A DNA stretch of 64,000 nucleotides from Acidobacteria bacterium Ga0077534 (GTDB lineage Bacteria > Acidobacteriota > Blastocatellia > Pyrinomonadales > Pyrinomonadaceae), in NCBI GenBank assembly GCA_001464455.1, contig LNEI01000018.1:411343-475342 (forward strand), in the 5' to 3' direction. A program made the position numbers and the translations under genes. The notes under the pieces are model-generated. The model was not told the DNA's origin. It did not search any database and saw only the letters and a program-made list of their open reading frames with translations. This document shows positions 429 through 30,935 of the stretch, one piece after another; the stretch's first letter is position 1, and the number at the start of each line of letters is the position of its first letter.

Positions 429-499
429 TAGAAGTGAAATTCTAGAGGCCGCATCCCAAAACTGTCAAAAGGACGCACGAGTCCGCTATACTATCGGCG

Positions 500-1795
500 A
501 TGGATCAAACTCGATCGGAAATCCCGCCCCCAAAGCTCATCTCTACGCTCAGGTCATACGATCTTTTGCCGGCAATTGTCTTTTTGCCGACAAGAAGGCG
601 TTGCGACGAGGCGGCTTCGGAAGTGGCAAACGATAAGTCGCAGTTTGTGGATGCGGAAAAGCAGCTTGTACGGCAAAAGATATTCGAAGAGTTTGCGGTC
701 GAAAGCCCAGAGGTCCGTGGGCACAAGCACGCCAAGCTGATCGTTAACGCAGGCGTTGCCGCACATCACGCCGGTCACATCCCGTCCTGGAAATTGCTGA
801 TCGAACGCATGATGTCCGGCGGCCTTTTGAACGCATTATTTGCCACGTCAACTGTGGCGGCCGGTGTTGACTTCCCCGCTCGGACGGTCGTTATCACCAA
901 CGCCGATACGAGGGGAAACGAAGGCTGGCGTTCGCTTACGGCAAGTGAACTGCAGCAGATGACCGGCAGGGCCGGACGGCGTGGCCGGGACAAGGTCGGG
1001 TTCGTCGTTCTCGCTCCGGGACAGTTTCAGAATCCGCGTAAGATCGCGGAGCTTCTGCGATCACCGCCCGATGCTCTGGAGAGCCGCTTTCGTGCGACCT
1101 ACACCAGCCTGCTCAATCTGCTTGATGCCTTTGGAAACTTCGAACAGGTTCGAGAGATCGCCGAGAAAAGCTACGCCTTTCGCTCGGAGATCTTTGACCG
1201 GCGGTCGAGACAGAATAATGAGCTGACGAGCGACCGTATCTGGCAGCCGTTCGAGAGGCGAGCGGCGGTGCTTGACCAGCTTGGGTATATAGATCGGGAA
1301 TCTGAAACGGTTACCGAATCAGGCAAGTGGCTCGCCGATCTGCGGATAGATCGCCCGCTGCTGATAGGTGAAGCCCTAAGAGAGGGCATCTTTGACGAGC
1401 TTAAAGCCTCGGAAGCTGCAGGATTAATGGCCTCAGTTGCCGCTGACGCTGACCGCAGCTACGGTGAGATGAGATCGTCAAGGCGAATGGTCGACATCCT
1501 TTCCGAGTTCGAAGACCTGGTGATATCGACATCTAATATTGAGTTGCGAAACGGCGTTATACCGAGTGAGGAGATCAATTACTCCGCTGCCGCTACCGCC
1601 GAACGCTGGACCGCCGGAATGGAATGGCAGGAGCTGGTTACGCGTACCAAGGCCGAAGAGGGCGACCTCGTCCGTCTGCTGTCTCGTACCGGAGAGGCGT
1701 TGCGGCAGCTTGCAAACCTCAGGGATTCGAACCCGACGGCGGCGGCCATCGCTCGTACGGCGGCAGAGACGATACTCCGCGACCCGATACGTTAG
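500..1795 (+). CDS. Ski2/HelY-like SF2 helicase, C-terminal half only (RecA2 plus C-terminal domains); fragment of a split gene
   Basis: ORF track 431 aa. Motifs IV-VI are present: LLPAIVFLPTRRRCDEAA, AAHHAGHIP, LFATSTVAAGVDFPARTVV, QMTGRAGRRGRD. Motifs I-III are absent. The frame is open back to 446 (in-frame tag at 443-445). There is no SD before ATG 500. The missing N-terminal half is at 30048..30935 on the other strand. Confidence 0.8.
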   Translation: MDQTRSEIPPPKLISTLRSYDLLPAIVFLPTRRRCDEAASEVANDKSQFVDAEKQLVRQKIFEEFAVESPEVRGHKHAKLIVNAGVAAHHAGHIPSWKLLIERMMSGGLLNALFATSTVAAGVDFPARTVVITNADTRGNEGWRSLTASELQQMTGRAGRRGRDKVGFVVLAPGQFQNPRKIAELLRSPPDALESRFRATYTSLLNLLDAFGNFEQVREIAEKSYAFRSEIFDRRSRQNNELTSDRIWQPFERRAAVLDQLGYIDRESETVTESGKWLADLRIDRPLLIGEALREGIFDELKASEAAGLMASVAADADRSYGEMRSSRRMVDILSEFEDLVISTSNIELRNGVIPSEEINYSAAATAERWTAGMEWQELVTRTKAEEGDLVRLLSRTGEALRQLANLRDSNPTAAAIARTAAETILRDPIR

Positions 1796-1869
1796 TTCCG
1801 TTTCCCTTGTCCATTTGATAAACTGTGCCTTGTGGCAACGACCGAACAAGGGGTCAAGGGTTAACGAAA

Positions 1870-2709
1870 ATGCAAGTTTTACTGGCAAATGAATACGGCT
1901 TCTGTTTCGGTGTCGAAAGGGCGGTCGAGATGGTCGAGAAAGCGATCGGTGAAGGGCAGACTGTTCGTGCCCTCGGCCCGCTGATCCACAACGAGCAGGA
2001 AATGCAGCGTCTCGCCCACGAAGGCGTTACCACGATAAACGCTCCCGTCCAGATACAGCGGAACGAGACGGCGGTCATCAGGGCACATGGCGTGACGCCG
2101 GAGGTGCAGCGTGAACTCGAAGAAAAAGCCGGAAGCGTGGTCGATGCGACCTGTCCGTTTGTCACACGTGTACAGAAATTGGCTTCACGTGCAGCTGCCG
2201 AAGATCGTCATGTCATAGTCGTCGGCAGCCCTGACCACCCTGAGATGATCGGCGTGCATGGATACGCACCGAACCACGCCTTCGTGATCCGTGACGAATC
2301 CGAGATCCACACGCTTCCACGCCTCAGAAGGCCGCTCGTCGTCTCGCAGACGACCATCAAGGCAAAGACCTTCTTCGACACGGCTGACGCCATTCGGGCA
2401 AAGACGGATGATACGGTCGAGGTGATAAACACGATCTGTTCCGCGACCCGCGACCGGCAGGAAGCCGCACGTGCTTTGGCAGGAATGGTCGATGCGTTTT
2501 ACATCATCGGCGGCAGACATTCGTCCAACAGCGTAAAACTCCTCGCCGTCTGCAAAGAGCAGTGCGAAAAGAGCTTCCTGATCGAGACCGAAGCCGAGAT
2601 AGATGCTTTTGACCTGATAGGTGTCGAGAAAGTCGGTGTAACTGCCGGAGCTTCGACGCCAAAATGGCTCATCGACAAGGTCGTAAAGCACCTCGAAGGC
2701 CTTGGCTGA
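1870..2709 (+). CDS. ispH: 4-hydroxy-3-methylbut-2-enyl diphosphate reductase
   Basis: ORF 1825..2709. From the internal ATG at 1870 it reads MQVLLANEYGFCFGVERAVEMVEKA..., with IRAHGV, DATCPFV, SQTT, NTICSAT and GGRHSSNS motifs typical of IspH/LytB. The 1825 GTG extension is not homologous. Confidence 0.9.
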   Translation: MQVLLANEYGFCFGVERAVEMVEKAIGEGQTVRALGPLIHNEQEMQRLAHEGVTTINAPVQIQRNETAVIRAHGVTPEVQRELEEKAGSVVDATCPFVTRVQKLASRAAAEDRHVIVVGSPDHPEMIGVHGYAPNHAFVIRDESEIHTLPRLRRPLVVSQTTIKAKTFFDTADAIRAKTDDTVEVINTICSATRDRQEAARALAGMVDAFYIIGGRHSSNSVKLLAVCKEQCEKSFLIETEAEIDAFDLIGVEKVGVTAGASTPKWLIDKVVKHLEGLG

Positions 2710-2736
2710 CCCGCTGGCGACATCAACACAAAAAAT

Positions 2737-2763
2737 ACGCCGCATCGTTTCCAGATGCGGCGT
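2737..2763 (+). terminator. stem-loop downstream of ispH
   Basis: acGCCGCATC-gtttcca-GATGCGGCgt forms an 8-10 bp stem 28 nt after the ispH stop. There is no clear U-tract. Confidence 0.45.
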
Positions 2764-2920
2764 CAACCTATTTCGGAGATTTCGAATAGACCTCTGGCGT
2801 TCCTCACAGGCCAAAAAATGTTTGCCACTGTGCTTTCCCACGCGTTAATTCCGTTCATCTAATACAAACTGCCATTCGGACAGAAGTTCCAGAAAGAAAA
2901 GAAAGACTTCCGCGATCTCT

Positions 2921-2996: not shown

Positions 2997-3023
2997 TAGT
3001 TTTCTTTGCCGCAGAGCGGCAAT

Positions 3024-3906: not shown

Positions 3907-3983
3907 TGGTGGTCCCGGCTGGATTCGAACCAGCGGCCTTCCACTTAGGAGGCGGACGCTCTATCCTGCTGAGCTACGGGACC
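3907..3983 (-). tRNA. tRNA-Arg (anticodon CCT), CCA encoded
   Basis: The reverse complement GGTCCCGTAGCTCAGCAGGATAGAGCGTCCGCCTCCTAAGTGGAAGGCCGCTGGTTCGAATCCAGCCGGGACCACCA folds as a cloverleaf. Acceptor stem GGTCCCG/CGGGACC; D arm GCTC/GAGC; anticodon stem TCCGC/GTGGA; loop CTCCTAA; T arm GCTGG-TTCGAAT-CCAGC. Confidence 0.93.
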
Positions 3984-4004
3984 AAGATGGGGAACGGTGA
4001 ACAA

Positions 4005-8339: not shown

Positions 8340-10388
8340 TTAGTGCGGACTGGCAACGAGATTGCGGACGCGTTCCGCTACGTCGCGAAAATCAACGTCC
8401 TCAGCGTAAACCTGTTCGAAGTATCGAATTGCCTCGCTATCATCGCCCGCAGCCTCATGAGCGGTCGCAAGTTCGTACCACAATCCGTGATGCTCTTCAG
8501 TCGAGATGTCCGGTGTTTCCAGGGCTCGCTCAAACCATTTAATGGCATGTTTCGGCTGGTCGTTTAACAGAAAGCAGTGTCCGAGCAGGTTGGCACAGGA
8601 GAAGAATCGCCTTGTTCCATCATGCATCTCGACCCTACTTACAGCCTCCTGATATTCACGTATGGCCTCTTCCATTAAGCCCATTTCCTGGTAAGCAACC
8701 CCCATGTGGTAATGCGTTTCGTAGTCCTCGTCGGAGGTATCTTCAGCGGTTTCAAGGCCGAACTCCGACCGGATCTGGTCGATACCGATCGTGCTCGCGG
8801 TCACCTCGGGCGTTGCTTGCTCGACGACAACGGACGCGGATATCTTGGCCGGCTCGTCAAACTCGGCACCTATACGCCTTCGCAGCACCGCAAACTCTTC
8901 GCGGTCGCCAAACTCGGCCGCCAATTCCGAAAGGGCCTTCTCTGCCAGATCGTTGTAATCGTTTTCGATGTAAAAGTCGATGCTCTCAAGTTCCTTTTGG
9001 ATCTTCAGCTGATCGGCATGCGATAGATCAGATGGCTCCGGCATCAACTCGACGGTCTCTGTTTCTCGATGAAACTCGAACCCTGACGATGTTTCGATGA
9101 CCGTTCCCTCGACGACTTCGCCATTCGAGTGCTCGCCCGGGTCATCAGGCCCGAATGCGGACAGCCCTTCTGACAGGAATTCCGTTGCCGTGGTTTCGGT
9201 ATCCCCTTCTTCAAATCCAAACTGTTCGTTGATCTCGTTCAAACGATCGCGAAAACGCGTCTCATGCGGTCGGAGTACAACAAGATGGTTAAGTGCAAAT
9301 CGCTCGTCATCGATCGACTGCTTACTCGATGCTGATGAATACAGCCTTTCAAGCGAAAGTCGAAAGCCGTTTTCATCCTTGAGCCATGAGTTGTAACGAA
9401 CAAGCAACCGAAGTCCGCCGAGGTGTGCCGGATCGCGTTCAAGTATCTCGTTGATCCATTTTCCGCACTCGTCAGACTGGCCGCCGGCGAGCATGTACTC
9501 GGCAGACATGGTCAATATCCGAGCGGCCGATTCCGGATCGTTCACATTCAGATAGATGCGGATCAGGTCGAGGAATTTGGGGTAGTTCGCCGGTTCGATC
9601 TCAACCAATTTTACAACGGCACGCTCAGCACCTGCCGCATTCTGCGAATCGATACAGCACTCGATCAGCAGATATAAAACATCACGATTGTACGGCTCGT
9701 TTTCCAGGATCTCTTCGAGAAGTGCGGACGCCTTCTGAGCACGGCCCAAGGCTGTCTGAGCTTTAACGAGGCCGTTCAAAATGCGTAGATCGGTCGACTT
9801 GAGGTCAAAACCCTTCATCAACGCCCTTATTGCCTCTTCGTTCTTGCCCTGACGGCTAAACCTCGCACCCGCCTCCGCGTAGGCTTCGAGGGCTTCATCT
9901 TTCTGATTCTCCCGAATATAAGAATCGGCCAGATTCATGCAGACTTCCGTATTATTGGGGTCGAGCAAAGCGATCTGTTTGTACATCGCCAAGGCTTCGA
10001 GGCGGCGGCCGTTTTTCTGGTAGTGTTCTGCGAGCGTAGTGTAATGCGAACGAGCCTCGGCCAGCGATCCCTTGTTCTTGTGGAGTTCGGCAAGCTTCGC
10101 CGAAACCTCTATAGAATCGGGCTGAATGCGGGTGATCTTGTTGTATATCGCGATAGCCTTCTGCGAAAATCCCTGGGTGTTGTAATGGTCTGCGACCTGG
10201 AGATAACAGGCGACCGCCTCCTTTTTCTCAGCGTTTTTGGCGTAAAGATCGCCCAGCATGTTGAGCGTAGCGATGTCGCGAGGGTCGTTATCAACCACCG
10301 ACCGGTACTCCGCGATGGCCGCACGAAGCTTGCCTTGCGCAACGAACCGCTCCGCATTTCGCATCGCTTTTGCTTTATCGAAACTCAT
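8340..10388 (-). CDS. tetratricopeptide-repeat protein
   Basis: 682 aa. Many 34-aa TPR-like units occur at both ends (A..Y..v...dP.....n.LgdlY...g...eA), with an acidic linker in the middle. Confidence 0.75.
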   Translation of the reverse strand: MSFDKAKAMRNAERFVAQGKLRAAIAEYRSVVDNDPRDIATLNMLGDLYAKNAEKKEAVACYLQVADHYNTQGFSQKAIAIYNKITRIQPDSIEVSAKLAELHKNKGSLAEARSHYTTLAEHYQKNGRRLEALAMYKQIALLDPNNTEVCMNLADSYIRENQKDEALEAYAEAGARFSRQGKNEEAIRALMKGFDLKSTDLRILNGLVKAQTALGRAQKASALLEEILENEPYNRDVLYLLIECCIDSQNAAGAERAVVKLVEIEPANYPKFLDLIRIYLNVNDPESAARILTMSAEYMLAGGQSDECGKWINEILERDPAHLGGLRLLVRYNSWLKDENGFRLSLERLYSSASSKQSIDDERFALNHLVVLRPHETRFRDRLNEINEQFGFEEGDTETTATEFLSEGLSAFGPDDPGEHSNGEVVEGTVIETSSGFEFHRETETVELMPEPSDLSHADQLKIQKELESIDFYIENDYNDLAEKALSELAAEFGDREEFAVLRRRIGAEFDEPAKISASVVVEQATPEVTASTIGIDQIRSEFGLETAEDTSDEDYETHYHMGVAYQEMGLMEEAIREYQEAVSRVEMHDGTRRFFSCANLLGHCFLLNDQPKHAIKWFERALETPDISTEEHHGLWYELATAHEAAGDDSEAIRYFEQVYAEDVDFRDVAERVRNLVASPH

Positions 10389-10524
10389 TTATTTTGACTG
10401 TAAAAAGTAGGACTGCGGAACGCCTCTCCGCCGAGCACGCCTGATGGGACGTCAAATTTTCTGTGAGGAGTGCACAGGTTTCTAGCCAACCTGTATCAAA
10501 TAATCTAACACGCAGTTTCCAGCA

Positions 10525-10554
10525 GTGTCAATGTATTTTATAAATGTTTATACT
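10525..10554 (+). promoter_or_regulatory. possible sigma70-type promoter for the sugar nucleotidyltransferase gene
   Basis: GTGTCA, an 18-nt spacer, then TATACT, about 77 nt upstream of ATG 10631. Pattern match only. Confidence 0.25.
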
Positions 10555-10630
10555 TTTTTAACGCGTTTTCGTCGGCCATCTTTGATTTTTTCATCGTGGT
10601 TCCTTAGTCTGAAACTCCCAGAGAATTCTT

Positions 10631-11671
10631 ATGCAAGCGTTGATACTCGCCGGAGGCAAAGGTACCAGACTCAGGCCGCTTACGGTTTATACGCCCAAAC
10701 CCGTCGTTCCGGTCGTTAATCGCCCTTTTCTGCTTTACCAGATCGATGTTCTCCGTTCTGCCGGGGTAACTGATATCACGCTCTCGCTCAGCTATCAGCC
10801 TGACAAGATCGAACATATTCTCGGCAACGGTTCGGAATTTGGGGTCAATCTTCGCTATATCACTGAGCCGAGCCCGATGGGAACTGGCGGGGCGTACAAA
10901 TTTGCCGCCGAATCGCTCGGCGATACCACTATTGTTTTCAACGGTGACATTCTGACCAACCTCGATCTCACGAGCCTGATCGAGTTTCATAGAGCGAAGC
11001 AGGCCGCCGCAACGCTGGCTGTCGTGCCGGTCGAAGACATTTCTCGCTACGGCGTGATCGACATCGACGGCGAAGGCCGCATTACCAAATTTATCGAGAA
11101 GCCGCAGGGCGACGAGCTTTCCTCGCTTGCAATAAATACTGTTAACGCGGGTATTTACATCTTGGAGCCGGCGATTCTCGACCTAATTCCGACGGCTGTG
11201 TCCCGCTCGTTCGAATATGAGGTATTCCCCGAAATACTCGAAAATGACTTGCCCTTTTTCGGATATAATATGTCCGGATCGTACTGGCAGGACATCGGGA
11301 CGCCCGAAAATTATCTCAAGGCTCATCAAGATTTCCTCGCAGGCAAGATCAGCGGCTTCGATCTTGAAAAAACTGCTGTTTATGACGTCGCAACGCGCTC
11401 CGAAATTGACAAAGTTTCGATCATCGGCGAAGGCTGTAGCATCAAGCCCGGCGTTCGTATTAAGAACTCCGTGATCGGCCCCGGCGTCTATCTTGACGAG
11501 CGTTGTGTGGTCGAAGATTCCGTAATTTGGGCACACACACGTGTTTCGACCGCAGCACACATCAGGTCGTCGATCGTCGGCCGCAGCTGCCACATTGGAC
11601 GCAACGCGGTGGTCAGCGAGGGTTCGGTACTCGGAGACAAGACCACGCTGACCGACTATACCCGCGTTTAA
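10631..11671 (+). CDS. NDP-sugar pyrophosphorylase (mannose-1-phosphate guanylyltransferase-like) with C-terminal left-handed beta-helix
   Basis: MQALILAGGKGTRLRPLT..PKP nucleotidyltransferase signature, followed by hexapeptide-repeat-like IGEGCSIKPGVRIKNSVIGPGV. Confidence 0.85.
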   Translation: MQALILAGGKGTRLRPLTVYTPKPVVPVVNRPFLLYQIDVLRSAGVTDITLSLSYQPDKIEHILGNGSEFGVNLRYITEPSPMGTGGAYKFAAESLGDTTIVFNGDILTNLDLTSLIEFHRAKQAAATLAVVPVEDISRYGVIDIDGEGRITKFIEKPQGDELSSLAINTVNAGIYILEPAILDLIPTAVSRSFEYEVFPEILENDLPFFGYNMSGSYWQDIGTPENYLKAHQDFLAGKISGFDLEKTAVYDVATRSEIDKVSIIGEGCSIKPGVRIKNSVIGPGVYLDERCVVEDSVIWAHTRVSTAAHIRSSIVGRSCHIGRNAVVSEGSVLGDKTTLTDYTRV

Positions 11672-11674
11672 GAT

Positions 11675-12508
11675 ATGCCTGAACTTCCGGAAGTTGAATC
11701 CATTTCTCGCTCACTCGACGCCCTGGTTCGCGGACGGAGGATCGCAGCCGCCGAATTGCTTCGACAGCGGCTTGCTCCGGATGTCACATTTGATGGTTTC
11801 GCGGCAACTCTGCGGGATCGCACGATCAATTTTGTCCACCGGCGCGGAAAGCACATTCTTTTTGACCTGACCGGCGACACCACTCTTATAGTTCATTTGA
11901 GAATGAGCGGCCGGTTTTCCCTGCTTCCGGCTGAGCGAGAGAACCCGAAGTTTACCCACGCCCAATTTCACCTGGACGGCGGTGACCGGCTTGTATTTGA
12001 CGACCAGCGACATTTTGGCTTGATGAAGATCGTACCGACCGCACAGCTTTTTGAGTCAAAAGAGCTGGCAAAACTTGCTCCGGAACCGTTCTCCGACGAG
12101 TTTTCGACCGGATATTTTTGTGGCGTTCTCAAAGCGTCTAAAAAGCCGCTAAAAGAGTTGCTACTCGATCAAACCAGAGTCTGCGGCGTCGGGAATATCT
12201 ACGCCAGCGAAGCGATGTTTGCTGCCGGCATTCATCCGGGTATCCGTGCCGAAGTGGTCTCGAAACCACGGGCGGCTCGCCTTCGCGAAGCGGTGATTGC
12301 CGTACTTCGTGAGGCAGTCGATTTTGCCGCGACACTCCCGGTCGACCCTGAGAATCTCGAAGGCAGCTATTTCAGCGGCAGCGATGACCCGAAGTGGTAC
12401 GTGTACGACCGTGAAAACGAGCCCTGTCGCAATTGCAATTCGCCGATAATTCGGATAAAACAAGCGGGTCGTTCGACATATTTTTGCCGCATATGCCAGC
12501 GGCGTTGA
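11675..12508 (+). CDS. mutM: formamidopyrimidine-DNA glycosylase
   Basis: N-terminal MPELPEVE, an H2TH region, and the C-terminal zinc finger CRNCNSPI...GRSTYFCRICQ. Confidence 0.93.
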   Translation: MPELPEVESISRSLDALVRGRRIAAAELLRQRLAPDVTFDGFAATLRDRTINFVHRRGKHILFDLTGDTTLIVHLRMSGRFSLLPAERENPKFTHAQFHLDGGDRLVFDDQRHFGLMKIVPTAQLFESKELAKLAPEPFSDEFSTGYFCGVLKASKKPLKELLLDQTRVCGVGNIYASEAMFAAGIHPGIRAEVVSKPRAARLREAVIAVLREAVDFAATLPVDPENLEGSYFSGSDDPKWYVYDRENEPCRNCNSPIIRIKQAGRSTYFCRICQRR

Positions 12509-12533
12509 GTTTTTCGCCGCGAAGGAGTTTCAA

Positions 12534-13172
12534 ATGCCTAAAAAGATTGCCAGCACACTGTTCTCGATCGTCTTGATCGCGCTTCTTTCCTCCGCAGCAC
12601 TTGCCTGTGCCTGCTGTGCAGAACGGGGAACGTATATCGTCTGGACCGGCAGAGTCGAGAGCTTTCAGGTCGATCTGCTCAAGGAGATGAAATTCTCGGA
12701 GAAGGCAGAACTCTACATGACCGAAGCGGGGTTTGATGGCATTACAGGCATCAATATGATCGAGGCGGACCTCGGCACCGGCCCCGAACCGCCGCTCGAT
12801 CTGGTTGACGCGTTTACGGGATCTGCGTGGACACTCCGATTCAAAACACCGACGGGCCGCGCTGGTTCCCTCGTCCTGCCCAGGCCGGCCCGCTTAACTG
12901 TTCGCAAGGTCGATTACCCCGACAATAACTCGACTGCGGCCAATGTGGTTCTTTACAAGGAGTTTATCTTCACCGGCCGCGTGCGTTCCGGTTCGGGCTT
13001 TTTCAAAGCAAGCGTGTCGAATTCACCGAAATTCACGCTCATCTTCATGGGCCGCGGCAACGGCTGCGACAACGCCGAAGACTTCACCAACTGGCATTTG
13101 GCTATCGACGGGACGAAGGCAGATTATGCTTTCTTTGGAAAAATGAAGGCAGCCGGATCAAACGCGCGATAA
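12534..13172 (+). CDS. hypothetical secreted protein
   Basis: Signal peptide MPKKIASTLFSIVLIALLSSAALA followed by CACCAERG. No recognisable domain. Confidence 0.5.
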   Translation: MPKKIASTLFSIVLIALLSSAALACACCAERGTYIVWTGRVESFQVDLLKEMKFSEKAELYMTEAGFDGITGINMIEADLGTGPEPPLDLVDAFTGSAWTLRFKTPTGRAGSLVLPRPARLTVRKVDYPDNNSTAANVVLYKEFIFTGRVRSGSGFFKASVSNSPKFTLIFMGRGNGCDNAEDFTNWHLAIDGTKADYAFFGKMKAAGSNAR

Positions 13173-13181
13173 ATTAAAAAA

Positions 13182-13215
13182 GACAGGGCCCGACGTGCTG
13201 CCGCCGGGCCCTGTC
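13182..13215. terminator. bidirectional stem-loop between convergent genes
   Basis: GACAGGGCCCG-N12-CGGGCCCTGTC forms an 11-bp stem. It is preceded by an A-run, so it is U-rich when read on the minus strand. Confidence 0.65.
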
Positions 13216-13232
13216 AAGAGTCGAACTGGAAG

Positions 13233-16200
13233 TTATTCCTGTCCAATAAAGTCAACGTTAGCCAGGCTATCGTTAACGTTCAGTACCCGCGATGCAAAGC
13301 GGTATCGTCGTGATGCCGCATTGACGATGTAAGTCCTACCGGACTCTACACCTTCAAACGTATACACGCCGAATGAGCTCGTTAGAGCAGTTCGGCGGAC
13401 TCCTTCCGAATCCGTCATAGCAACAGTCACGCCGCGAATGCCCTGACCGGCAGACGTTGTAACACGTCCCGTGACAGTTACATCAGCTGCAGTGGTGCCG
13501 CCGATGATGACGTTACCAACCTCAAAAGTGGTTGCAAGCAACACACCCTGCGCGTTCGAGACGCTCTGTACCGTCGGCGAACTGCTAAAGGTGATCGGGT
13601 ACGTTCCATTCGCAGCATTCGCCGCAACGTTGAACGTGATCGTTACCATCTGCCGGGTGCCGACGGCATAAGTATTAGTCGAATCGACCAAAATACCTAC
13701 CCTACCCGCTGCAACCTGGTTCAGGTTGGTATTGACCACCGACCCGCTTGGAACTCCCGAGCCGAGAGTTACAACCGGATTGCTCAACACCGTAGGATCG
13801 AAGTTGACGGTATAACTCGCCGAAGCTTCGTCACCCTGCGAATCGAGCTGGATCGTAACGACAACCGTTTGCCCCGCAACGCCGTTGGCATTGGTCGAAC
13901 GGATTATACGGCCCACAGCCTGACCGACTGGATCCGACTGAATTCCGGCAACCGAAGACGGTGTTGGAGTTGGAGTCGGCGTCGGTGTTGTGCTTGGGCC
14001 AGTTGGCCCACAGGCAGTTGTCGGCACCAAGGCACCAAGAATGAACTGACGAACAATAGTCACATCGGCCGCATTTATCATTCCGTCCCCGCACGTACCA
14101 TTAACATCGGCTCGCTGGAACTGGCTCGCATTGACCGGGGTCAAAGTGCCAAGAACAAACTGGCGGATTACCGATATGTCATTCGCGAGCACTCGCCCGT
14201 CACCGTTCGGCCCTCCGTCTGCGTCAACGACGTCACCCTCGAGAGCTGAAAACGGCGTCGGAGTTGCAACTGGCGTAGCTGTTGGTGAAGGCGTAGCCGT
14301 TGGTGTCGGCGTAGGTGTCGGCGTATTTGCCGGGGTTGGTGTCGGCGAGCCAGAGACGTCATCGTTGAAGATAGTCCCGATACCATTACCCTTAGTGATT
14401 ATCATTGCATCGTCGCCGCTGACGTATGTGAGTCTAACGGTAAACGTTTCGTCCGGTTCAAAGGCGGTATCGCCGTTGACCAGAACAGTGATCTTCTGCA
14501 CGGTATCAGTGCGTCTCGTAAACGTTAACGTTCCCGAAGTCGCCTGATAGTCATTGTTGGCTACCGCAGCAGTGCCGTCGATCGTCGTATATCCGATGAT
14601 GATGGACTGGCCCAGGGCCGGACGCGATGAGATATTCACATCGAAGACGAACTCGGTCGTTCCTGAGTTTCCCTCTCCCTTAAGGACGTCATTAATAAAT
14701 GCCGTCCTAACGGTCGGAGTTGGGGTAGGCGTTACAGTCGGCGTTGGGGTCGGCGTCGGCGTTGCCGTTGGTGTCGGCGTTGGTGTCGGCGTCGCCGAAC
14801 TTGCAAAACCGATCACTGCGGTGAGTCCGGTGCTGTCGCTGTTGTAGCTTGCATTTGCACCATAACCGACGCTGAAGTCGATGATGTCGCCCGCTGCCAA
14901 CGTAACTGCCGCCGTATTGAATGGCTCAACATCTCCAAAGCCGTCGACGTTGCCAGAGAAAAGCTCGATACCGTCTACTAAGCCTTCAGGAGCATTCAAC
15001 ACAGGCATTGCCGAACGCTGAATGACCCGCACGTCGGTCGTTGTTCCGCCCGTGTCTATCCCCTCAAACTGTCCGTTGATCGTATAGTTTCCAGCGACAG
15101 GAGCAGTGAATCTGACCACCGCACGCTCGCCGAGCGGTCCGGGATGCAGATTTAGTTCTAGCGGGTCCTGAACAATGGTGCCGTAAGTGATCGTCGTGTT
15201 TGTTCGATTAGCAAAGACGGCCGGCACGAGGTCTGCATCAGGCTCATCGCGATGCCATCTGTCGATACCCGCAACTGGCTCATTTGCACTTGCGAATGGG
15301 AACGTAAGCAGAGGCGAGCTTGGATCAGACGTAGTAGTATTGCCGTACGTATACTCGCAGTTCGGATTCGAAGCGAGCGAAAAATCGTCCGCTAGTTCGT
15401 AAGGTGCCGTGCTCGTCGTACAATCTCGCGGAAGATCCGGTGAGCACGCCGAAGGAGCAGTTAAGAACGGATCGAAATCAACATTGGTCGAAACCAGATC
15501 GCCGCTGCCCGGTCCAACCGGTCCCGGACCATTCGCTGCACCCCAGTAGTTGTTCTCGGCATTGGCGGATGTTGCACTTAGATTCTGAACACCAAACGTC
15601 GTATTGCCAAAAATGTTGTTCTGGTTAATGTTGATGCCGCCGACCGCTGTTGCTGAGACAAGAACGCCGATCGAGTTAGCGGTGAAATTGTTGCAGGTCA
15701 CATTCGAAACAACTGCGCCATCAGCTTGAAAGCCGGTTGCATTGCTGTTGAAACGGTTGTTCTGCACCAAAAGCCCTGTCGAAGAACCAGTGTTAAGGAT
15801 CTCGCTCCACAATCCGCGGGCGAGATCGGAGAGGTTGTTTCCGTTGATCGAAGCATTGACGACCGTACCGCGCAAACGAATTCCGTTGCTAGTCGCTCCG
15901 TCAATTCCGCTGATGCGGTTGCCGCTGACTACCGCATTTTCGATCGTACCCATCGTCTGGCTTGCTGCGATCGAGCCGTTCGAAAGCGATATACCGGTGC
16001 GGGTGGCCCCGAGAGCGGTGATCATATTGTCCGTGATCGAAACGTTTGAATAGCCGCCCGTCGAACCCTGGAATCCAGCAGAAAAGCTGATAGCGCCGGT
16101 ATTTGGACTATTGAAGGTGTTATTGGCAACACGTTGCTGGCCCGCGACGTTATTCCCGTCGTAGGTGAAGTTAAAATAACCGGTCGCAAAATTTCCTGAG

Positions 16201-17588
16201 ATCGTGTTGCTGAAAACATCAGTTGACGATTGCGGGCGTTCGATCAGGATCGGGTTGAACGCGTTGTTTAGAAATTCGTTGTTGTTGACGACGATCGGGC
16301 CGCGTGGACGATCTGTATAAAGACCGTAGTCGGCAAGGTTTACACCTTGAAACCTATTGTTAGCTATCGTGATGGTCGGATCCGGCGAAACCTGTTTCGC
16401 GAAGATCAGATATCGCGAACTGCCGGTCAGACCAGGCCCCCTAACCGTAAATCCTGAGAAACTAGCGTCGCCAGTCTCGGTCAACGGAAGGTCGATGCGC
16501 ACCAGGCCAGCAGATGCTAATGCAGCACCACCACCGTCGATGATCGTATTTTCAGATCCGGACCCGACAACTGCGATCGATTTTTGGATCAGAATCTGTG
16601 CTTCGTTGTATGTTCCGGGACAAACTTTTACCGTGTCGCCAGGATTTGCCGCATTCACCGCAGCCTGTATCGTTAGCTGCGCGACATCCGTTGCGTCACA
16701 ATCAGTCGCACTCGCCAAGCCATCATCATCTACAACTACAGTTGCATTGCCCGGCTCAAAATCGTAGACAGTTCCGTTAAAGTTGAAAAGATCGGTCTCC
16801 ACATTGTAGCTCTGATTGAACGTTCCAACCTGCACTCCGTAGCCGATCACGACGGCATTTGGAAACGTCGTCTGGATGAACGAAAGCGAATAGAATGGCG
16901 GTCCACCGGCTCCCGCAACGACCGACGGGCTGCCCGGATCAGCCGGACAAGTCACGCTGCGTGAAGAATAGAACATTCCCTGGTCGACGTCCTGAAATTC
17001 GAAAACGCCCGGAACTATTGGCGGATTCGGCCCCGTACCATTCTTCTGGTAAGGCTCATAAACCAGCGTCGTAAAGCCCGTCGTTCCGCCGCAAAGGTAA
17101 ATCGGCAGTTGGAATGACGGTGCCGCAACTGGCGGGCCGCTAACCTGCTTTGTGTAATAACTTAGGTCGGTGACACTGGTCAGAAGCGTACCCGAGGGAG
17201 CGGCATGCGAGAAATTTGCTCGTGCTGTATTGGTTGCATCGGTTGTCATCCGCAATGCACCTCGGCCCGCCGGAGCTGTGGCATCAAAAACAAAATCGAT
17301 GGCCCCGCCCGCAGTGGTTGAGGATACCCATCCCTGCAGGTCAGCCGGTGTAACGACAATATTAGCAGGCGCTCCTGCTGGCCTTGTGTCGTCAGCCGCT
17401 GCACTTACATTGCTGGTTGTATTGAATAATGATGTGAATGATTCAAAAAATGACGGCGAAGCGGCGCTAGCCGCCGCGGCCGAGAATGTTAAAATAGAAA
17501 TGCCTATCACGGCAATCAAACCCCATACGGTTCGATTTCGGATAGACCGAACATAAGACGCCATGAGCGCTAAGTTTTTTGTACGCAT
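13233..17588 (-). CDS. giant secreted multidomain protein: parallel beta-helix (PbH1) region, Calx-beta, dockerin-like, cohesin-like, CarboxypepD_reg-like, joined by PT linkers
   Basis: 1451 aa. N-terminal signal/TM segment. The beta-helix region has repeated N..I.GN / N.F..N units (about 15490-16690). Calx-beta: VLKGEGNSGTTEFVFDV...DYQATSGTLTF...EPDETFTVRL (about 14350-14710). Dockerin duplicated segment: DADGGPNGDGRVLANDISVIRQFVLG and ADVNGTCGDGMINAADVTIVRQFILG (about 14010-14250). Cohesin-like: GQTVVVTIQLDS...YTVNFDPTVL...GTRQMVTITFNVAANAANGTYPITF (about 13500-13955). C-terminal VTVTGRVTTSAGQGIRGVTVAM...FGVYTFEGV. Confidence 0.8.
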   Translation of the reverse strand: MRTKNLALMASYVRSIRNRTVWGLIAVIGISILTFSAAAASAASPSFFESFTSLFNTTSNVSAAADDTRPAGAPANIVVTPADLQGWVSSTTAGGAIDFVFDATAPAGRGALRMTTDATNTARANFSHAAPSGTLLTSVTDLSYYTKQVSGPPVAAPSFQLPIYLCGGTTGFTTLVYEPYQKNGTGPNPPIVPGVFEFQDVDQGMFYSSRSVTCPADPGSPSVVAGAGGPPFYSLSFIQTTFPNAVVIGYGVQVGTFNQSYNVETDLFNFNGTVYDFEPGNATVVVDDDGLASATDCDATDVAQLTIQAAVNAANPGDTVKVCPGTYNEAQILIQKSIAVVGSGSENTIIDGGGAALASAGLVRIDLPLTETGDASFSGFTVRGPGLTGSSRYLIFAKQVSPDPTITIANNRFQGVNLADYGLYTDRPRGPIVVNNNEFLNNAFNPILIERPQSSTDVFSNTISGNFATGYFNFTYDGNNVAGQQRVANNTFNSPNTGAISFSAGFQGSTGGYSNVSITDNMITALGATRTGISLSNGSIAASQTMGTIENAVVSGNRISGIDGATSNGIRLRGTVVNASINGNNLSDLARGLWSEILNTGSSTGLLVQNNRFNSNATGFQADGAVVSNVTCNNFTANSIGVLVSATAVGGININQNNIFGNTTFGVQNLSATSANAENNYWGAANGPGPVGPGSGDLVSTNVDFDPFLTAPSACSPDLPRDCTTSTAPYELADDFSLASNPNCEYTYGNTTTSDPSSPLLTFPFASANEPVAGIDRWHRDEPDADLVPAVFANRTNTTITYGTIVQDPLELNLHPGPLGERAVVRFTAPVAGNYTINGQFEGIDTGGTTTDVRVIQRSAMPVLNAPEGLVDGIELFSGNVDGFGDVEPFNTAAVTLAAGDIIDFSVGYGANASYNSDSTGLTAVIGFASSATPTPTPTPTATPTPTPTPTVTPTPTPTVRTAFINDVLKGEGNSGTTEFVFDVNISSRPALGQSIIIGYTTIDGTAAVANNDYQATSGTLTFTRRTDTVQKITVLVNGDTAFEPDETFTVRLTYVSGDDAMIITKGNGIGTIFNDDVSGSPTPTPANTPTPTPTPTATPSPTATPVATPTPFSALEGDVVDADGGPNGDGRVLANDISVIRQFVLGTLTPVNASQFQRADVNGTCGDGMINAADVTIVRQFILGALVPTTACGPTGPSTTPTPTPTPTPSSVAGIQSDPVGQAVGRIIRSTNANGVAGQTVVVTIQLDSQGDEASASYTVNFDPTVLSNPVVTLGSGVPSGSVVNTNLNQVAAGRVGILVDSTNTYAVGTRQMVTITFNVAANAANGTYPITFSSSPTVQSVSNAQGVLLATTFEVGNVIIGGTTAADVTVTGRVTTSAGQGIRGVTVAMTDSEGVRRTALTSSFGVYTFEGVESGRTYIVNAASRRYRFASRVLNVNDSLANVDFIGQE
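14253..14350 (-). repeat. Pro/Thr linker-coding low-complexity repeat
   Basis: (ACN CCN)n, encoding SPTPTPANTPTPTPTPTATPSPTATPVATPTP. A third, shorter linker lies at about 13957-14010. Confidence 0.8.
14712..14795 (-). repeat. Pro/Thr linker-coding low-complexity repeat
   Basis: Encodes ATPTPTPTPTATPTPTPTPTVTPTPTPT. It shows up as poly-GV in the plus-strand shadow ORF 14554..14847. Confidence 0.8.
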
Positions 17589-17958
17589 AAATTACTGATC
17601 CCCCTGGAACGAATATCAAACTACCGTGCAGACGGTGCCAAACGCCCGCCTACGAACTCACCGGCCATTTCTGTACCGTAATTTAGCGATTTGAACATTA
17701 GGGAAAGCATTAGTCTGTGCGACAGCAAACTTATCGGATAATAAGTTTCAATTATACAGCCTTGGCCAGCTTGATTGGCGTCCGTCAGCCGGGCACCGTG
17801 ACACGCTTGACAGTATTAACTGAAAAGAACATCATCGTATCTAATCTTCGTGGTGAGTTAATGCGACTTGCGACCACGTTAAATAATCCGCTAAACAGCT
17901 TAAAAGACATCGTTTGTAAGAAAGGTCTCGCTGTTTATCGGCGGGGCTTTTCTCTTGG

Positions 17959-18035
17959 GATCTTTGACCTTGGACCTTTGATCTTTGACTGGAACAAAGA
18001 TCGAAGTTCTAAGATCAAAGATCAAAGATCAAAAA
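17959..18035 (+). promoter_or_regulatory. GATC-rich heptamer repeat / imperfect long hairpin abutting the yitJ-like start codon
   Basis: Six GATC sites fall within 72 nt. Three tandem AAGATCA units lie at 18011-18031. Inverse copies GATCTTTGA (17959-17967) and TTTGATCTTTGA (17977-17988) lie upstream. The inner stem is GATCTTTG-actggaa-CAAAGATC. Confidence 0.4.
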
Positions 18036-19928
<1,893 letters not shown>

Positions 19929-24189: not shown

Positions 24190-24642
24190 TTATTGGGACT
24201 GTCTAACCGCAGTTAGAAACTCGTAAGGATCGACAATTTTCAGATTTGGGTAAGTTGCGACTAAAGTGTCGTCGCCAGACAATTCGAGCAGGTCTTTATC
24301 CCTTGAAACCAGATATTCGGCACGGGTTGCGATCGCAAGATCAACGATCATCGCATCATCTGGATCACGGTCAAGCTGGAACAACCTTTCAGTCGATGGC
24401 ACCCAAGTCCCATACTTCCTGATCTTCCGTACCAGATCAGCCGTGGAAGGCGACCGCACTCTCCAGTACTTCTCCCGCACCTTTGGTCGTAACAGGAAAT
24501 CGTCGACCTCCTGAAGAATTTCAGGGCGAACGAAAACCAGGATACGCCCGGCAAATAGTTCATTGACACAAGCACTACCCGGACCCGTTTCGCTGAGTAT
24601 CGCCTGAATGAAGATATTTGTGTCAAATACCGCCGAGATCAT
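24190..24642 (-). CDS. PIN-domain toxin (PIN_3 / TIGR00305-like)
   Basis: 150 aa. VFDTNIF (first acidic residue), [19 protein letters not shown] and [10 protein letters not shown] match the PIN acidic quartet layout. An ATGA overlap links it to the upstream small ORF. Confidence 0.75.
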
Positions 24643-24893
24643 TTGGCGAGAAGTCGTCGCTCCTGGCGAACCGCGGCAAGTTCCGTATCTATGAGTTCGT
24701 CAAGTTCGGCGTCGGTTATGCCCAACCGCTTGGTCTCCGCATGAAAGGGAGCTACTAGCTCATCCCATGTCGGTTCTTTCGCTCCCCGTTCGACCATTTC
24801 TCTGACAAAAACATCGAACGATTTTCCGTTGCTCTTAGCTTGCTGCTTAAGCCTCGTCTCCGCTTCCTTTGAAATTTCAATCGTGATACTCAT
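24639..24893 (-). CDS. putative antitoxin partner of the PIN toxin
   Basis: 84 aa, acidic C-terminal half, and a 4-nt overlap with the PIN gene. No recognised DNA-binding motif by eye. Confidence 0.55.
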   Translation of the reverse strand: MSITIEISKEAETRLKQQAKSNGKSFDVFVREMVERGAKEPTWDELVAPFHAETKRLGITDAELDELIDTELAAVRQERRLLAK

Positions 24894-28059: not shown

Positions 28060-28746
28060 TTGATCCCAGCAAAAATGTCTGAAACCGCGATCTTATCGAT
28101 GAGCCGACACATCTCCTTAAACGAGCAAAGCCTTAAGCAGGCGTGCCTTGAGTTGTCCCGTGCCCACCCGGAGATGAAGCTCGTTTATGAGTCATACGGA
28201 GCACCGCCGATGTGGGACCGGCCGCCCGGCTTTCCTACTTTGTTGAATATCATTCTGGAACAGCAGGTTTCGCTGGCTTCGGCAAAGGCTTGTTTTGATA
28301 AGCTGACGGCGTTTATTGGCGAGATCACGCCGGAAAATTTGTTGAAATTAAACGACACCGAATTGAAGACAATTGGCTTCAGCCGACAAAAAACCGCGTA
28401 CGGCAGGCATTTGGCAGAAGCGTTGATCGATAAGCGATTCGATTTTGAATCGATCCACCTGCTGCCCGACGAGGAAGTTAAGGCGGAGATGCTAAAGCTC
28501 AAAGGCGTCGGCGAGTGGACATGCGATGTCTACCTGCTAATGGCGATGCTCCGGCCAGACGTGATGCCGCGGGGGGATATTGCTTTACACGCCGCTTATC
28601 AGAAGCTGACCGCCATGGAGAAACGTCCCGGTTCAGACGAATTTATTGCGATCGCCGAGAAATGGCGGCCGTTTCGTTCGGTTGCGGCAAGGCTGTTGTG
28701 GCATTTTTATTTAAGCGAACGCGCCGCGAAGCAAGGGCGATACTAA
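28060..28746 (+). CDS. alkA: DNA-3-methyladenine glycosylase II family (AlkA-like HhH-GPD)
   Basis: FPTLLNIILEQQVSLASA, the helix-hairpin-helix LKGVGEWTCDVYLL, and the catalytic-region D in MPRGDIAL. The start is uncertain (28060, 28075 or 28099). Confidence 0.8.
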   Translation: MIPAKMSETAILSMSRHISLNEQSLKQACLELSRAHPEMKLVYESYGAPPMWDRPPGFPTLLNIILEQQVSLASAKACFDKLTAFIGEITPENLLKLNDTELKTIGFSRQKTAYGRHLAEALIDKRFDFESIHLLPDEEVKAEMLKLKGVGEWTCDVYLLMAMLRPDVMPRGDIALHAAYQKLTAMEKRPGSDEFIAIAEKWRPFRSVAARLLWHFYLSERAAKQGRY

Positions 28747-28887
28747 CAACGGGCGGGCTTTCGCGATCGTTGTTAACAAAATCCCCCGTGCATTCGTCAT
28801 TTAGTTCGGTTATTATCGGCAACACTAACGAACATTGCCGCATCTTTTACGTAAAGAGAATCGACTTAGGTTTTATCGAGGTTTTTC

Positions 28888-29937
28888 ATGAGAATTAAAT
28901 TGTTTTCGACAGCCACTCTGGCGGTACTTTTGTTCAATGTTGCGGCCTTTTCGGTGGGCGATGCTCGTTCTGCACGGATAAAGAAAGCTGAGGTTTCGCG
29001 GCTCGTAGCAATGCTTCCGGCTTCCGACGGCGTGGTGGTGTTTGATTCAAAGCGTTTTGTAAACGACGCTTTGCCAAAGATCCTTTCATCAAATCAAACG
29101 ATGCTCACCGAGGTGATGGCAAAGATCACCGAAATGGAGACGACAACCGGCATCGACCTCAAGAAATTTGACCAGCTCGCGGTCGGCGTTGCTATCAAAA
29201 AGATCTCGGCAAAAGAGTATGATTTCGAGCCAGTCGCTCTCGCAAATGGCGATATAAACTCGGGAGCCTTGATCTCCGTCGCGAAACTTGCCTCGAAAGG
29301 CACCTACCGTGAAGAAAAGATCGGCGAAAAAACTGTCTATATTTTCGCAGCGAAGGACCTCATCGAAAAGAATGCAAAGCCGGCTAATTCCGCGGTCGCC
29401 GGCATGCTCGACAAGGGTTTGAAGGGCATGGCGAAGGACGTCGCGGTAGCAGCGATTGATAAAAACACGATCGCGATCGGGTCGGTACCGCGTATTCGAC
29501 AGACCATCGCAGGCGGCACCAGGATCGGAGCTGATGTGACGTCGCTATTATCAGTAAAAGAGACCTCGGTGATGAGTTTCGCGATGAAGTCGCCCGGCGG
29601 CATGGCGTCGCTGCTTCCGCTCGACAATGACGAACTTGGAGCCAATATCGATGCTATAGATTATCTCGCCGGCTCGATGGATGTCGCAGCGACCGGAACC
29701 ACGCTCGGCGTCATCGCCCGAACCAAAAAGACCGAGCAGGCACAAGGCCTGAAAGACACGCTCGACGGCCTGAAGATGGTGGGCGGAGCGATCTTCGGCG
29801 GCTCAAAACGAGCAGATCAACAGATCTACGGCCGACTGATCAAAAATGCCAAAGTTGATCTGCGAGGCAATGATGTTTCCCTCGACCTGACCATCGCCCA
29901 AACGGATATCGATGGGCTGATCGGCGGGATAAAGTAG
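28888..29937 (+). CDS. hypothetical secreted protein
   Basis: 349 aa with signal peptide MRIKLFSTATLAVLLFNVAAFS. Coding-like composition, no recognised domain. Confidence 0.55.
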   Translation: MRIKLFSTATLAVLLFNVAAFSVGDARSARIKKAEVSRLVAMLPASDGVVVFDSKRFVNDALPKILSSNQTMLTEVMAKITEMETTTGIDLKKFDQLAVGVAIKKISAKEYDFEPVALANGDINSGALISVAKLASKGTYREEKIGEKTVYIFAAKDLIEKNAKPANSAVAGMLDKGLKGMAKDVAVAAIDKNTIAIGSVPRIRQTIAGGTRIGADVTSLLSVKETSVMSFAMKSPGGMASLLPLDNDELGANIDAIDYLAGSMDVAATGTTLGVIARTKKTEQAQGLKDTLDGLKMVGGAIFGGSKRADQQIYGRLIKNAKVDLRGNDVSLDLTIAQTDIDGLIGGIK

Positions 29938-30047
29938 CTTCGGTTCGCAGTTGCGACGAGCCTTAGCTGGCGCGTTCAAATGGGTGGCGAAGAGGCTTTA
30001 GCAAAACGGATAAGTTGTGCTGAAGCCTTTTCTCTCGATTGGGCTTT

Positions 30048-30935
30048 TCAGCGTCGTCTCCGGAAACCGCCGCTTCCCTGCCTCGCAAACTGCTCGAGAT
30101 CACGATTGAACCCGCCATCCGGGCCGAGGAGCGGGAAAAGCTGGAGATCGCTTGAAAGATATGCGGCGCGAAGCTCGACCGGGCGTGGGCCGGCTTTTAT
30201 GACGCGGACTCGTGTCCCGCGGATCTCTTCGATCCACGAGGCGAATTCCTGAGCTTTTCCGACCGTAGCCGATAGAAGCAAGAGCCGGATTCGCGGCGGC
30301 GAGAGGATTATCGCCTCTTCCCAGACATGGCCGCGTTCTTCGTCTGAGAGGTAATGGGCTTCGTCGAGAATGACGAGATCGGCCTCGACCTGGCCGCCTT
30401 CGCGCAGGGCGTCGAAGAGTTGGTTTCGATAGATCTCGGTCGTTCCGACGATGATCGGGGCGTCGCTGTTTTCTTTGCGGTCGCCGGTCAGGATGCCGAC
30501 ATTTTCGGCACCGAACTCGAGCTGGAATTCGGCATATTTTGAATTCGTGAGGGCTTTCAACGGTGTGGTGTACCATGACCGCTTGCCCTGCTCGAGCAGT
30601 CGACGGATCTCCTCGCGGGCGATCCATGTTTTGCCGCTGCCGGTCGGAGCCGTGACGAGAACGTCCTCAGTCTCGATCGCCGAGAGGGCTTCGAGTTGAA
30701 ACGGATCGGGCTTGAAGGGCTTTGGCTCGGGCACGCCCAGGCCGCTCAAAAGCTTTTCAACGGCCTTAAGCTGTGCCAAAGTCTGAGCTTGAGGCGGCCG
30801 ACTCATTGAACTTTTGCCGTACTTATCTCGTTTATCTCTGTGCTCGCCCTGTGGACGGGAATGTCCGGATGAGGATCTTCGGCGACGGTTGCGGTCAGGT
30901 CTTCGCGGCATGGTGGAGATATTAGCACGTTTCAC
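30048..30935 (-). CDS. Ski2/HelY-like SF2 helicase, N-terminal half only (RecA1); fragment of a split gene
   Basis: 295 aa. Motif I APTGSGKTW, Ia TTPLKALTNSKY, Ib GTTEIYRN, II LDEAHYL (DEAH), III LLSATVG, then RPVEL. It stops directly after GSGGFRRRR, and motifs IV-VI are missing. They are found at 500..1795 on the plus strand. Confidence 0.8.
   Translation of the reverse strand: MKRANISTMPRRPDRNRRRRSSSGHSRPQGEHRDKRDKYGKSSMSRPPQAQTLAQLKAVEKLLSGLGVPEPKPFKPDPFQLEALSAIETEDVLVTAPTGSGKTWIAREEIRRLLEQGKRSWYTTPLKALTNSKYAEFQLEFGAENVGILTGDRKENSDAPIIVGTTEIYRNQLFDALREGGQVEADLVILDEAHYLSDEERGHVWEEAIILSPPRIRLLLLSATVGKAQEFASWIEEIRGTRVRVIKAGPRPVELRAAYLSSDLQLFPLLGPDGGFNRDLEQFARQGSGGFRRRR

Follow-up and report, generated by a model that had tools for sequence, protein, structure and literature searches.

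Two half-genes of a Ski2/Mtr4/HelY-type helicase maintained as separate genes in Acidobacteria

A 64,000-nt stretch of the genome of Acidobacteria bacterium Ga0077534 (contig LNEI01000018.1, positions 411,343 to 475,342; hereafter the window) carries the two halves of a superfamily 2 (SF2) helicase of the Ski2/Mtr4/HelY type, encoded by two open reading frames (ORFs) located on opposite strands. A first-pass annotation of this sequence had proposed that a recent 29.6-kb inversion bisected an intact helicase gene, which could be restored by re-inverting positions 446..30050. We find instead that the half-genes are genuine genes that have long been maintained separately in this lineage, and not the products of a recent inversion. 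The two ORFs are probably the subunit genes of a naturally split helicase, with a stepwise history in which the gene would have been divided in place before its halves were dispersed along the chromosome.

Conservation of the two half-genes

The N-half gene, which encodes the RecA1 domain, is located at 30048..30911 on the minus strand and corresponds to a protein of 287 aa when translated from the ATG at 30911; an alternative GTG codon is present at 30935. Homologues begin at the corresponding methionine, and for this reason the ATG is likely the true start. In the translated ORF 30935..30048, a basic N-terminal extension precedes a complete RecA1 domain (PF00270, 1.8e-21) with the Q motif and motifs I (APTGSGKT), Ia (TPLKAL), Ib (TTE), II (DEAH) and III (SAT). 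The protein ends with the conserved tail ...FARQGSGGFRRRR, followed by a TGA codon at 30050-30048. The C-half gene, at 500..1795 on the plus strand, encodes 431 aa comprising RecA2 (motifs IV, V and VI, the latter QMTGRAGRRG), a winged helix and a ratchet/DSHCT domain (Pfam matches PF08148 DSHCT, 2.5e-27, and PF00271). Its frame is open from 446, just after a TAG codon at 443-445, with the ATG at 500 and the stop codon at 1793-1795, and its conserved start reads MDQTRSEIPPPKLI. The first-pass coordinates and translations were correct for both halves, that is, a minus-strand N-terminal half at 30048..30935 with motifs I-III, DEAH and the ending ...QGSGGFRRRR before TGA 30050-30048, and a plus-strand C-terminal half with motifs IV-VI, open from 446 and with a first ATG at 500. 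The assignment of the two ORFs to one HelY/Ski2-type helicase was likewise right; the single gene said to be restored by re-inversion was not.

We scanned one genome per GTDB species by tblastn and took the best 80 of 535 related loci. At 26 of these 80 loci the C-half stands alone, with no N-half within 10 kb; these 26 C-halves (~424-434 aa) are 70-88% identical, start at the same methionine and are followed by ispH. Relatives with at least 70% C-half identity are all split and dispersed. As a stand-alone protein, the C-half is found in at least 120 clusters at 90% identity (422-457 aa, 74-87% identical to the window protein) and the N-half also in at least 120 (284-299 aa, 75-96% identical). 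The search of the representative library with the N-half mixes true short proteins with contig-end fragments, so that its matches serve as leads only, four of which were checked in context. The ends of the proteins are invariant across clusters, with an N-half tail ...DQFARQRSxGFxRRRR* and a C-half head MDxxxxEIPPPKLI. Catalytic motifs are intact in 116-120 of 120 clusters, the N-half motifs in 119-120 of 120, and both FAT.T.A.G[VI][DN] and QM.GRAGRRG are present in all 120 C-half clusters. Neither half matches an NCBIfam family above its cut-off.

No internal stop codon occurs in 28 C-half and 5 N-half coding sequences. As synonymous sites are saturated and many dS values undefined, selection was evaluated from the ratio of nonsynonymous to synonymous differences per site (pN/pS) and by comparison with the neighbouring ispH gene. 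This ratio is 0.18 for the C-half, 0.19 for the N-half and 0.14 for ispH, with pS at ~0.7 across the clade. Together with the preserved motifs in 116-120 of 120 clusters, these values contradict the earlier suggestion that the helicase had been inactivated.

A recent illegitimate inversion of 446..30050, cutting an intact gene and leaving decaying pseudogene halves, would account for the position of the halves on opposite strands 29.6 kb apart, for the retention of the ancestral outer neighbours (secA/h458 beside the N-half, ispH beside the C-half) and for the lack of any switch machinery. We nevertheless regard this scenario as extremely improbable. Twenty-six species representatives show the same split with identical ends, as do more than 120 clusters of each half, with synonymous saturation, a pN/pS of ~0.18 and intact motifs. 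Elsewhere, distances of 0.18-1.95 Mb separate the halves, which in one genome share a strand. Moreover, as described below, the left junction is secondary, no linker shows homology to 446-499, the gene is already divided in place in the sister lineages, and no close relative with an intact collinear gene was seen. The comparison of synteny in related genomes, which the first-pass annotation had itself proposed, thus finds the halves conserved separately, an outcome that it had named as incompatible with a recent event.

It had also been suggested that the arrangement could result from a mis-oriented contig join or from an artificial rearrangement. Only the odd geometry of the locus speaks for such an error, whose probability appears negligible. 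Comparison over 11.8 and 21 kb gives 0 mismatches between the window and JALHQX010000003.1 (GCA_022841755.1) and JGI 3300002461 AADWTP_10000021, two long contigs produced by different pipelines (NCBI, 423 kb; JGI, 715 kb). Short contigs from separate assemblies of six runs (Logan/ENA; SRR28154522, SRR28154526, SRR28154527, SRR28154528, SRR28154529 and SRR2905840) cross the junctions with 100% identity, the left one in L002 and L003 and the right one in L006, L007 and L009, with L008 reaching 30010 (L numbers designate the loci compared). All eight public assemblies show one orientation only. Furthermore, the gene order of the right junction is found again in the diverged loci L092 and L095, and that of the left junction in L010 and L023. 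The absence of inverted repeats, insertion sequences (IS) and recombinases at the junctions, noted in the first pass, was confirmed: a single shared 7-mer links both junctions against 1.4 expected, i.e. none beyond chance, and no recombinase, integrase, transposase or IS domain was found among the annotated genes in or beside the segment. Given the lack of inverted repeats and of a recombinase, we agree that the locus is very unlikely to be a programmed switch.

Division of the linker and dispersal of the halves

The proposed breakpoint (445/446) lies in an intergenic region, 429..499, between the C-half gene and the 5′ part of ogg, an 8-oxoguanine DNA glycosylase gene of the Ogg-HhH type (1..428, minus strand, ATG at 428-426; PF22175, 3e-44 for the full gene on L001, the contig of the window). 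On the plus strand, a -10-like box TATACT (487..492) is located 7 nt before the C-half ATG, and a TATACT/TATAAT box is found at equal distance (7-8 nt) in about 20 of 28 loci of the dispersed clade. This position relative to the ATG at 500 suggests a leaderless C-half transcript. In L018, L029, L030, L032 and L093, the C-half ATG is overlapped by the coaX stop codon, in place of the box. On the minus strand, a promoter-like site for ogg (439..468) combines TTGACA (468-463), an 18-nt spacer and TAGAAT (444-439); it has 11 of 12 matches and ends 10 nt before the ogg ATG, and shuffled sequences give 0.4 sites in the region. Judged from these signals, 446-499 is a divergent promoter region and not a coding linker.

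The 18 codons at 446-499 (RPHPKTVKRTHESAILSA), which had been taken for the Arg/Pro-rich linker before motif IV, have no counterpart in the linker of any homologue, and the linker alignment leaves no room for them. In 27 relatives, the open stretch located 5′ of the orthologous C-half ATG is unconserved and varies from 0 to 79 codons. The match of codon phases at rc(30051..)|446.., presented as the restoration of a 744-aa gene, is a product of the chosen cut coordinates, since the cut points sit on codon boundaries beside two stop codons and any pair of ORFs can be joined in this way; it cannot be used as evidence. When the 744-aa join was compared to homologues by BLASTP, a check that had been proposed to look for a gap-free junction, the alignment ran through the junction but a gap of ~25 residues opened exactly there. 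The nearest full-length homologues of the join have 870-997 aa; the joined protein is ~190 aa shorter because the arch domain is missing within the C-half. A conserved motif found upstream of many C-halves, GCGGATTATAnCAGAGA, was considered as a possible new element and rejected, as it corresponds to the TATAAT promoter of a divergent amidase gene on the opposite strand.

Both halves are adjacent in 54 of the 80 loci, where they form one continuous ORF in 26 cases and have an interrupted linker in 28. At the 28 adjacent-split loci the N-half ends with ...RRR(Y/F/W)*, followed by a spacer of 3-200 nt with 1-7 in-frame stop codons (the first being TGA in 13, TAA in 9 and TAG in 6), and the C-half restarts at a conserved M-K-L-x-M-P-E-M/I-P-P, with the arch still present. 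They comprise the closest relatives of the clade of the window (L011-13) and 25 further Pyrinomonadaceae lineages, split at the same linker. In a neighbour-joining tree of the C-half region (416 columns, 100 bootstraps), the dispersed arch-less clade is monophyletic (100%) and its sister group is formed by the adjacent-split L011-13 (76%). The continuous L027 falls outside these two groups (100%), and the other adjacent-split lineages form a grade around a continuous clade (73%). Since the nearest sister lineages are split in place, the split preceded dispersal. The order of events assumed in the first pass, an intact gene cut by an inversion, should therefore be reversed: the gene was already divided when its halves separated. 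In the alignment, the N-half tail and the C-half head of the window partition the ancestral linker without foreign sequence, as expected if the break occurred in the spacer of a pair of ORFs that were separate already.

The same linker split is found in two unrelated bacteria. In L097 (2419-3484, 50% GC) the ORFs are adjacent, with a 53-nt spacer containing stops in all frames. In L101 (6001-8408, 30% GC) they overlap by ATGA and the C-half, of 469 aa, is arch-less; the N-half protein of L101 is present on four contigs. The split in L096 is ambiguous because the overlap adjoins a GGGGG run.

All 28 adjacent-split pairs share one reading frame despite spacers of 3-200 nt (e.g. L011-L013, L034, L036 and L040), which could hint at stop read-through. 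The halves might more generally be rejoined by read-through, by a split intein, by RNA trans-splicing or by programmed DNA inversion. However, this common frame probably reflects the way in which the top-80 tblastn list is ranked: two ORFs in frame yield one long tblastn segment, and the independent L096, L097 and L101 are out of frame. Many spacers hold 2-7 stops of all three types. No intein domain was detected by Pfam, and the tails, only ~10 aa on the N-half and 6 aa before EIPPP on the C-half, are too short to contain intein halves. In the window, no intron or ribozyme is detected by Rfam. Finally, inverted repeats and recombinase are lacking, and an inversion cannot reunite halves that share a strand and are separated by as much as 2 Mb. 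Rejoining in any of these forms is thus very improbable.

The distance between the halves varies from 29 kb in the window to 1.95 Mb. They are 177 kb apart on opposite strands in JGI Ga0119883_1000021, 1.76 Mb apart on the same strand in CAVTYF010000001.1 (4.5 Mb) and 1.95 Mb apart on opposite strands in JADJTD010000001.1 (4.15 Mb). The N-half always keeps its 5′ neighbours h458, h243 and secA (31145..36173 in the window, plus strand, divergent from the N-half), the ancestral upstream context of the helicase gene, found in nearly all relatives. The C-half is still followed by ispH (LYTB; 1870..2709, plus strand), the ancestral 3′ neighbour. At the 3′ end of the N-half, a convergent gene for a hypothetical protein of 349 or 350 aa is found in L092, L095 and the window (hyp349, 28888..29937, plus strand); its presence in L092 and L095 indicates that the right junction is old. 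An alkA-like HhH-GPD gene (28060-28746) is conserved in L092. Between hyp349 and the N-half, a hairpin at 29989..30032 (arms of 19 nt, 84% complementary; -17.5 kcal/mol, z = -2.2) is predicted and likely to act as a bidirectional terminator. In CAVTYF010000001.1 (L090, 4006-6816), secA is fragmented into several short ORFs, suggesting indel errors left uncorrected in the assembly; gene order was used for this genome and its reading frames were not relied on. A type II CRISPR-Cas system (Cas9, Cas1, Cas2) is located beside secA, a few kb from the N-half, in Ga0119883_1000021 (L095, 25-4324).

The left junction has a different history. In about 20 loci the C-half is located downstream of MT33-BPL-VanW-h108-coaX, either abutting coaX (the stop codon overlapping the ATG) or with a divergent amidase gene or other inserts (0.3-4.4 kb) in between. 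In the contig of the window the coaX block is located 5.8 kb upstream, and a GSDH-like/m238/m154/TPR-protease/ogg block lies in between, as in L010 and L023. The ogg gene adjoins the C-half only in these three loci; in L066 and L071 the ogg block is found downstream of ispH instead. Because the C-half follows coaX in most relatives, with or without the amidase gene, gene order indicates that the ogg|C-half junction is a later local rearrangement within this subclade. Position 445/446 is then not the original breakpoint, and the co-direction of alkA, the hypothetical gene and ogg after re-inversion, cited in support of the inversion, is coincidental, the ogg block having arrived later.

The interval between coaX and the C-half (compared in L014-L039, L066 and L071, and at 4220-9929 of L001) is a variable spot, with 0 nt, an amidase gene (523-530 aa), up to 4.4 kb of other genes or the ogg block; further contents are an unknown, secreted-looking protein of 394 aa and a membrane protein of 222 aa. 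In L010 (15237-21345), the block corresponding to 8343-19925 of the window is inverted and moved beside ispH, and comparison of L001 with L010 and L023 shows that m238, a gene for a 238-aa protein, is flipped in L010. These differences suggest that small rearrangements are frequent in the neighbourhood downstream of ispH. The sole tRNA gene of the window, tRNA-Arg(CCT) (3907-3983, minus strand), is located in this post-ispH stretch, which is rearranged between relatives.

Predicted product and other features of the window

Among the features of the Ski2-like group, RecA1, RecA2, the winged helix and the ratchet/DSHCT domain are present; the arch and a single-polypeptide core are absent. The arch/KOW insertion, typical of the Mtr4/Ski2/HelY subgroup, has left a scar at 1175..1235 on the plus strand (...SYAFRSEIFDRRSRQNNE...): the ~190 aa found here in full-length relatives are gone between residues ~228 and 245 of the C-half. 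BLASTP against full-length homologues gives two high-scoring segment pairs, with subject residues ~500-700 remaining without match. The C-halves of the dispersed clade give one such segment pair each, and the adjacent or continuous relatives all show a gap of ~580 nt, the arch being present. Compared to L011-13, identity is 54-56% in the ratchet region and 75-77% in RecA2. Single-chain arch-less relatives of 650-740 aa occur in other lineages, so that the arch can be lost independently of the split.

An AlphaFold prediction of the fused halves without alignment was useless (predicted local distance difference test, pLDDT, 35). With 44 full-length homologues as alignment, the fused model reached a pLDDT of 79.7 and a predicted template modelling score of 0.75. 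Confidence is low only at residues 1-43 (N-terminal extension), 194-196, 280-291 (split point) and 513-529 (arch scar). The model thereby shows the split ends in a predicted disordered loop. Its best structural match (Foldseek) is arch-less human MTR4 (6c90_A), with template modelling (TM) scores of 0.78/0.80 and a root-mean-square deviation of 3.8 Å.

In SF2 helicases the nucleotide is bound in the cleft between RecA1 and RecA2, and both domains are normally tethered in one chain. HelY and Mtr4 translocate 3′-5′ on RNA. The long maintenance of the separate genes in the lineage implies that the enzyme is probably built from two protein subunits. We infer that the RecA1 and RecA2-winged helix-ratchet subunits associate without covalent link, and that the product is most likely a two-subunit, arch-less Mtr4/HelY-like helicase. 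In the history that we propose, an in-place division of the gene, within the variable Arg/Gly-rich linker that joins RecA1 to RecA2, would first have occurred in an ancestor among Pyrinomonadaceae-like Acidobacteria, giving two adjacent ORFs. In the ancestor of the clade of the window, a rearrangement with a breakpoint in the inter-ORF spacer would have parted them, and the arch domain would have been lost in the same ancestor. The C-half would then be expressed from its own leaderless-type promoter or coupled to coaX, and the N-half would rely on the ancestral upstream region and the terminator hairpin. Later rearrangements would have brought the distance between the halves to values from 29 kb to ~2 Mb and, in the subclade of the window, moved the ogg block to the 5′ side of the C-half. 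In the complex, the winged helix and ratchet of the C-half may pack on RecA1 as in Mtr4, forming an ATPase cleft in trans with motifs I/II provided by one chain and the arginines of motif VI by the other. Such a complex would hydrolyse ATP at this composite site and move 3′-5′ on RNA as an arch-less helicase.

Alternatively, the two halves could both have been kept but be uncoupled, the RecA1 protein acting as a nucleotide/RNA binder and the RecA2-ratchet protein as an RNA binder with other partners. The genes are indeed unlinked, with different promoters and variable genomic contexts; the arch has been lost, the ratchet has diverged more than RecA2 relative to L011-13, and the divergence of the two halves is weakly correlated. 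We consider this alternative unlikely, since residues that are meaningful only jointly do not vary in either chain (Walker A/B and SAT in the RecA1 protein, motif VI QMTGRAGRRG in the RecA2-ratchet protein), the overall evolutionary rate of the halves is equal, and adjacent-split relatives keep a co-oriented pair.

Several points weigh against the two-subunit helicase and its proposed history. The key sister-group node has a support of only 76%, in a neighbour-joining tree based on 416 columns. Pairwise divergences of the two halves are similar but weakly correlated (r = 0.23, 6 pairs). Only four genomes were shown to hold both halves. The split genomes are all metagenome-assembled, and the sole isolate, Pyrinomonas methylaliphatogenes K22 (L061), has a continuous gene. 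The structural model describes a fused single chain only, and is uninformative on subunit association. Finally, a single inversion considered as founding event would run from the helicase spacer to a convergent hyp350|coaX junction; none of these genes is present within 10 kb at the outgroup loci.

On balance, we lean towards the view that these genes define an undescribed family of two-subunit Ski2-like helicases with an ATPase site formed in trans, long stable in Acidobacteria (28 adjacent lineages and at least 27 unlinked genomes, including that of the window) and recurring in the unrelated L097 and L101. If so, the ring of Ski2-type enzymes, with its winged helix and ratchet, can hold the helicase core together without a covalent linker, and separate promoters in the unlinked arch-less form would allow the helicase to be controlled by subunit supply. 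Such enzymes would also offer a ready-made system in which the two motor domains can be labelled or titrated separately. For genome annotation, the half-helicase ORFs of these Acidobacteria are genuine, and labelling them as pseudogenes, misassemblies or frameshifts would be wrong. However tidy, the recovery of a reading frame by re-inversion is no evidence of a recent event.

Other features were recorded in and beside the window. A SAM_alpha (SAM-II) riboswitch was detected by Rfam at 17840-17915 on the plus strand (41.4 bits, for a gathering score of 36), ~70 nt upstream of a 647-aa ORF (17985-19928) with S-methyltransferase and MTHFR domains; this family is named for Alphaproteobacteria and is found here on an acidobacterial contig. 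A protein of 1451 aa (13233-17588, minus strand) carries beta-helix, Calx-beta, dockerin and cohesin domains, and a 491-aa glucose/sorbosone dehydrogenase with a dockerin is encoded just upstream of the window (L001, 4220-5695, minus strand). Outside bacteria that form cellulosomes, cohesin-dockerin pairs are unusual. A 150-aa PIN-domain protein and an overlapping upstream ORF of 84 aa (24190-24893, minus strand), flanked by glmS-like and glmU-like genes, look like a toxin-antitoxin pair.

Comparison with known systems

In the literature searched, whose coverage is incomplete, no Ski2-like or other SF2 core divided between its RecA domains is described. The natural splits found there (reverse gyrase, DISARM/YprA, phage RNA polymerase and Pol III) are located at the boundary of the helicase module or outside it.

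The closest known proteins are those of the Mtr4/Ski2/HelY group (COG4581; mycobacterial HelY, yeast and human Mtr4, Ski2), which share the DExH RecA1/RecA2 core, the winged helix and the ratchet/DSHCT domain. In the PDB, Mtr4/Dob1, SKI2 and FRH match best by sequence (E 1e-38), the N-half matching Mtr4/Dob1 and Ski2 at ~1e-38, and relatives are annotated at source as ‘ATP-dependent RNA helicase HelY’. In contrast to these proteins, the enzyme of the window is made of two polypeptides cut between RecA1 and RecA2, lacks the arch/KOW insertion and is encoded by unlinked genes. The archaeal Ski2-like DNA helicases Hel308/Hjm form the same four-domain arch-less ring (TM 0.60-0.66) but are more distant in sequence (E ~1e-13 to 1e-17, against 1e-38 for Mtr4/Ski2), consist of single chains and have an additional domain 5 of the helix-hairpin-helix type. 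The only end-to-end matches of the C-half, from residues 11-13 to 406-428, are engineered arch-less MTR4/SKI2 chains (6c90_A, 9g8r_A, 4buj_A and 8qcf_M). These are laboratory deletions in single chains, whereas the deletion observed here is natural, fixed in a clade and associated with a split core.

Genes in pieces are known from other systems. The cyanobacterial dnaE-n and dnaE-c genes, ‘fractured genes’ with split inteins (PMC2677866), are likewise located far apart and sometimes on opposite strands. Unlike them, the helicase halves carry no intein fragments at their ends, and protein trans-splicing is not expected. The reverse gyrases of Nanoarchaeum equitans and Methanopyrus kandleri are encoded by two genes whose products form an active heterodimer (PMC4117796). 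In N. equitans the cut separates the helicase from the topoisomerase module, and in M. kandleri it falls within the topoisomerase domain (PMC4117796). As in these enzymes, the helicase halves are separate genes conserved across species; here, however, the cut passes between the two RecA domains that form the ATPase, and it is across this cut that we infer the association of the products.

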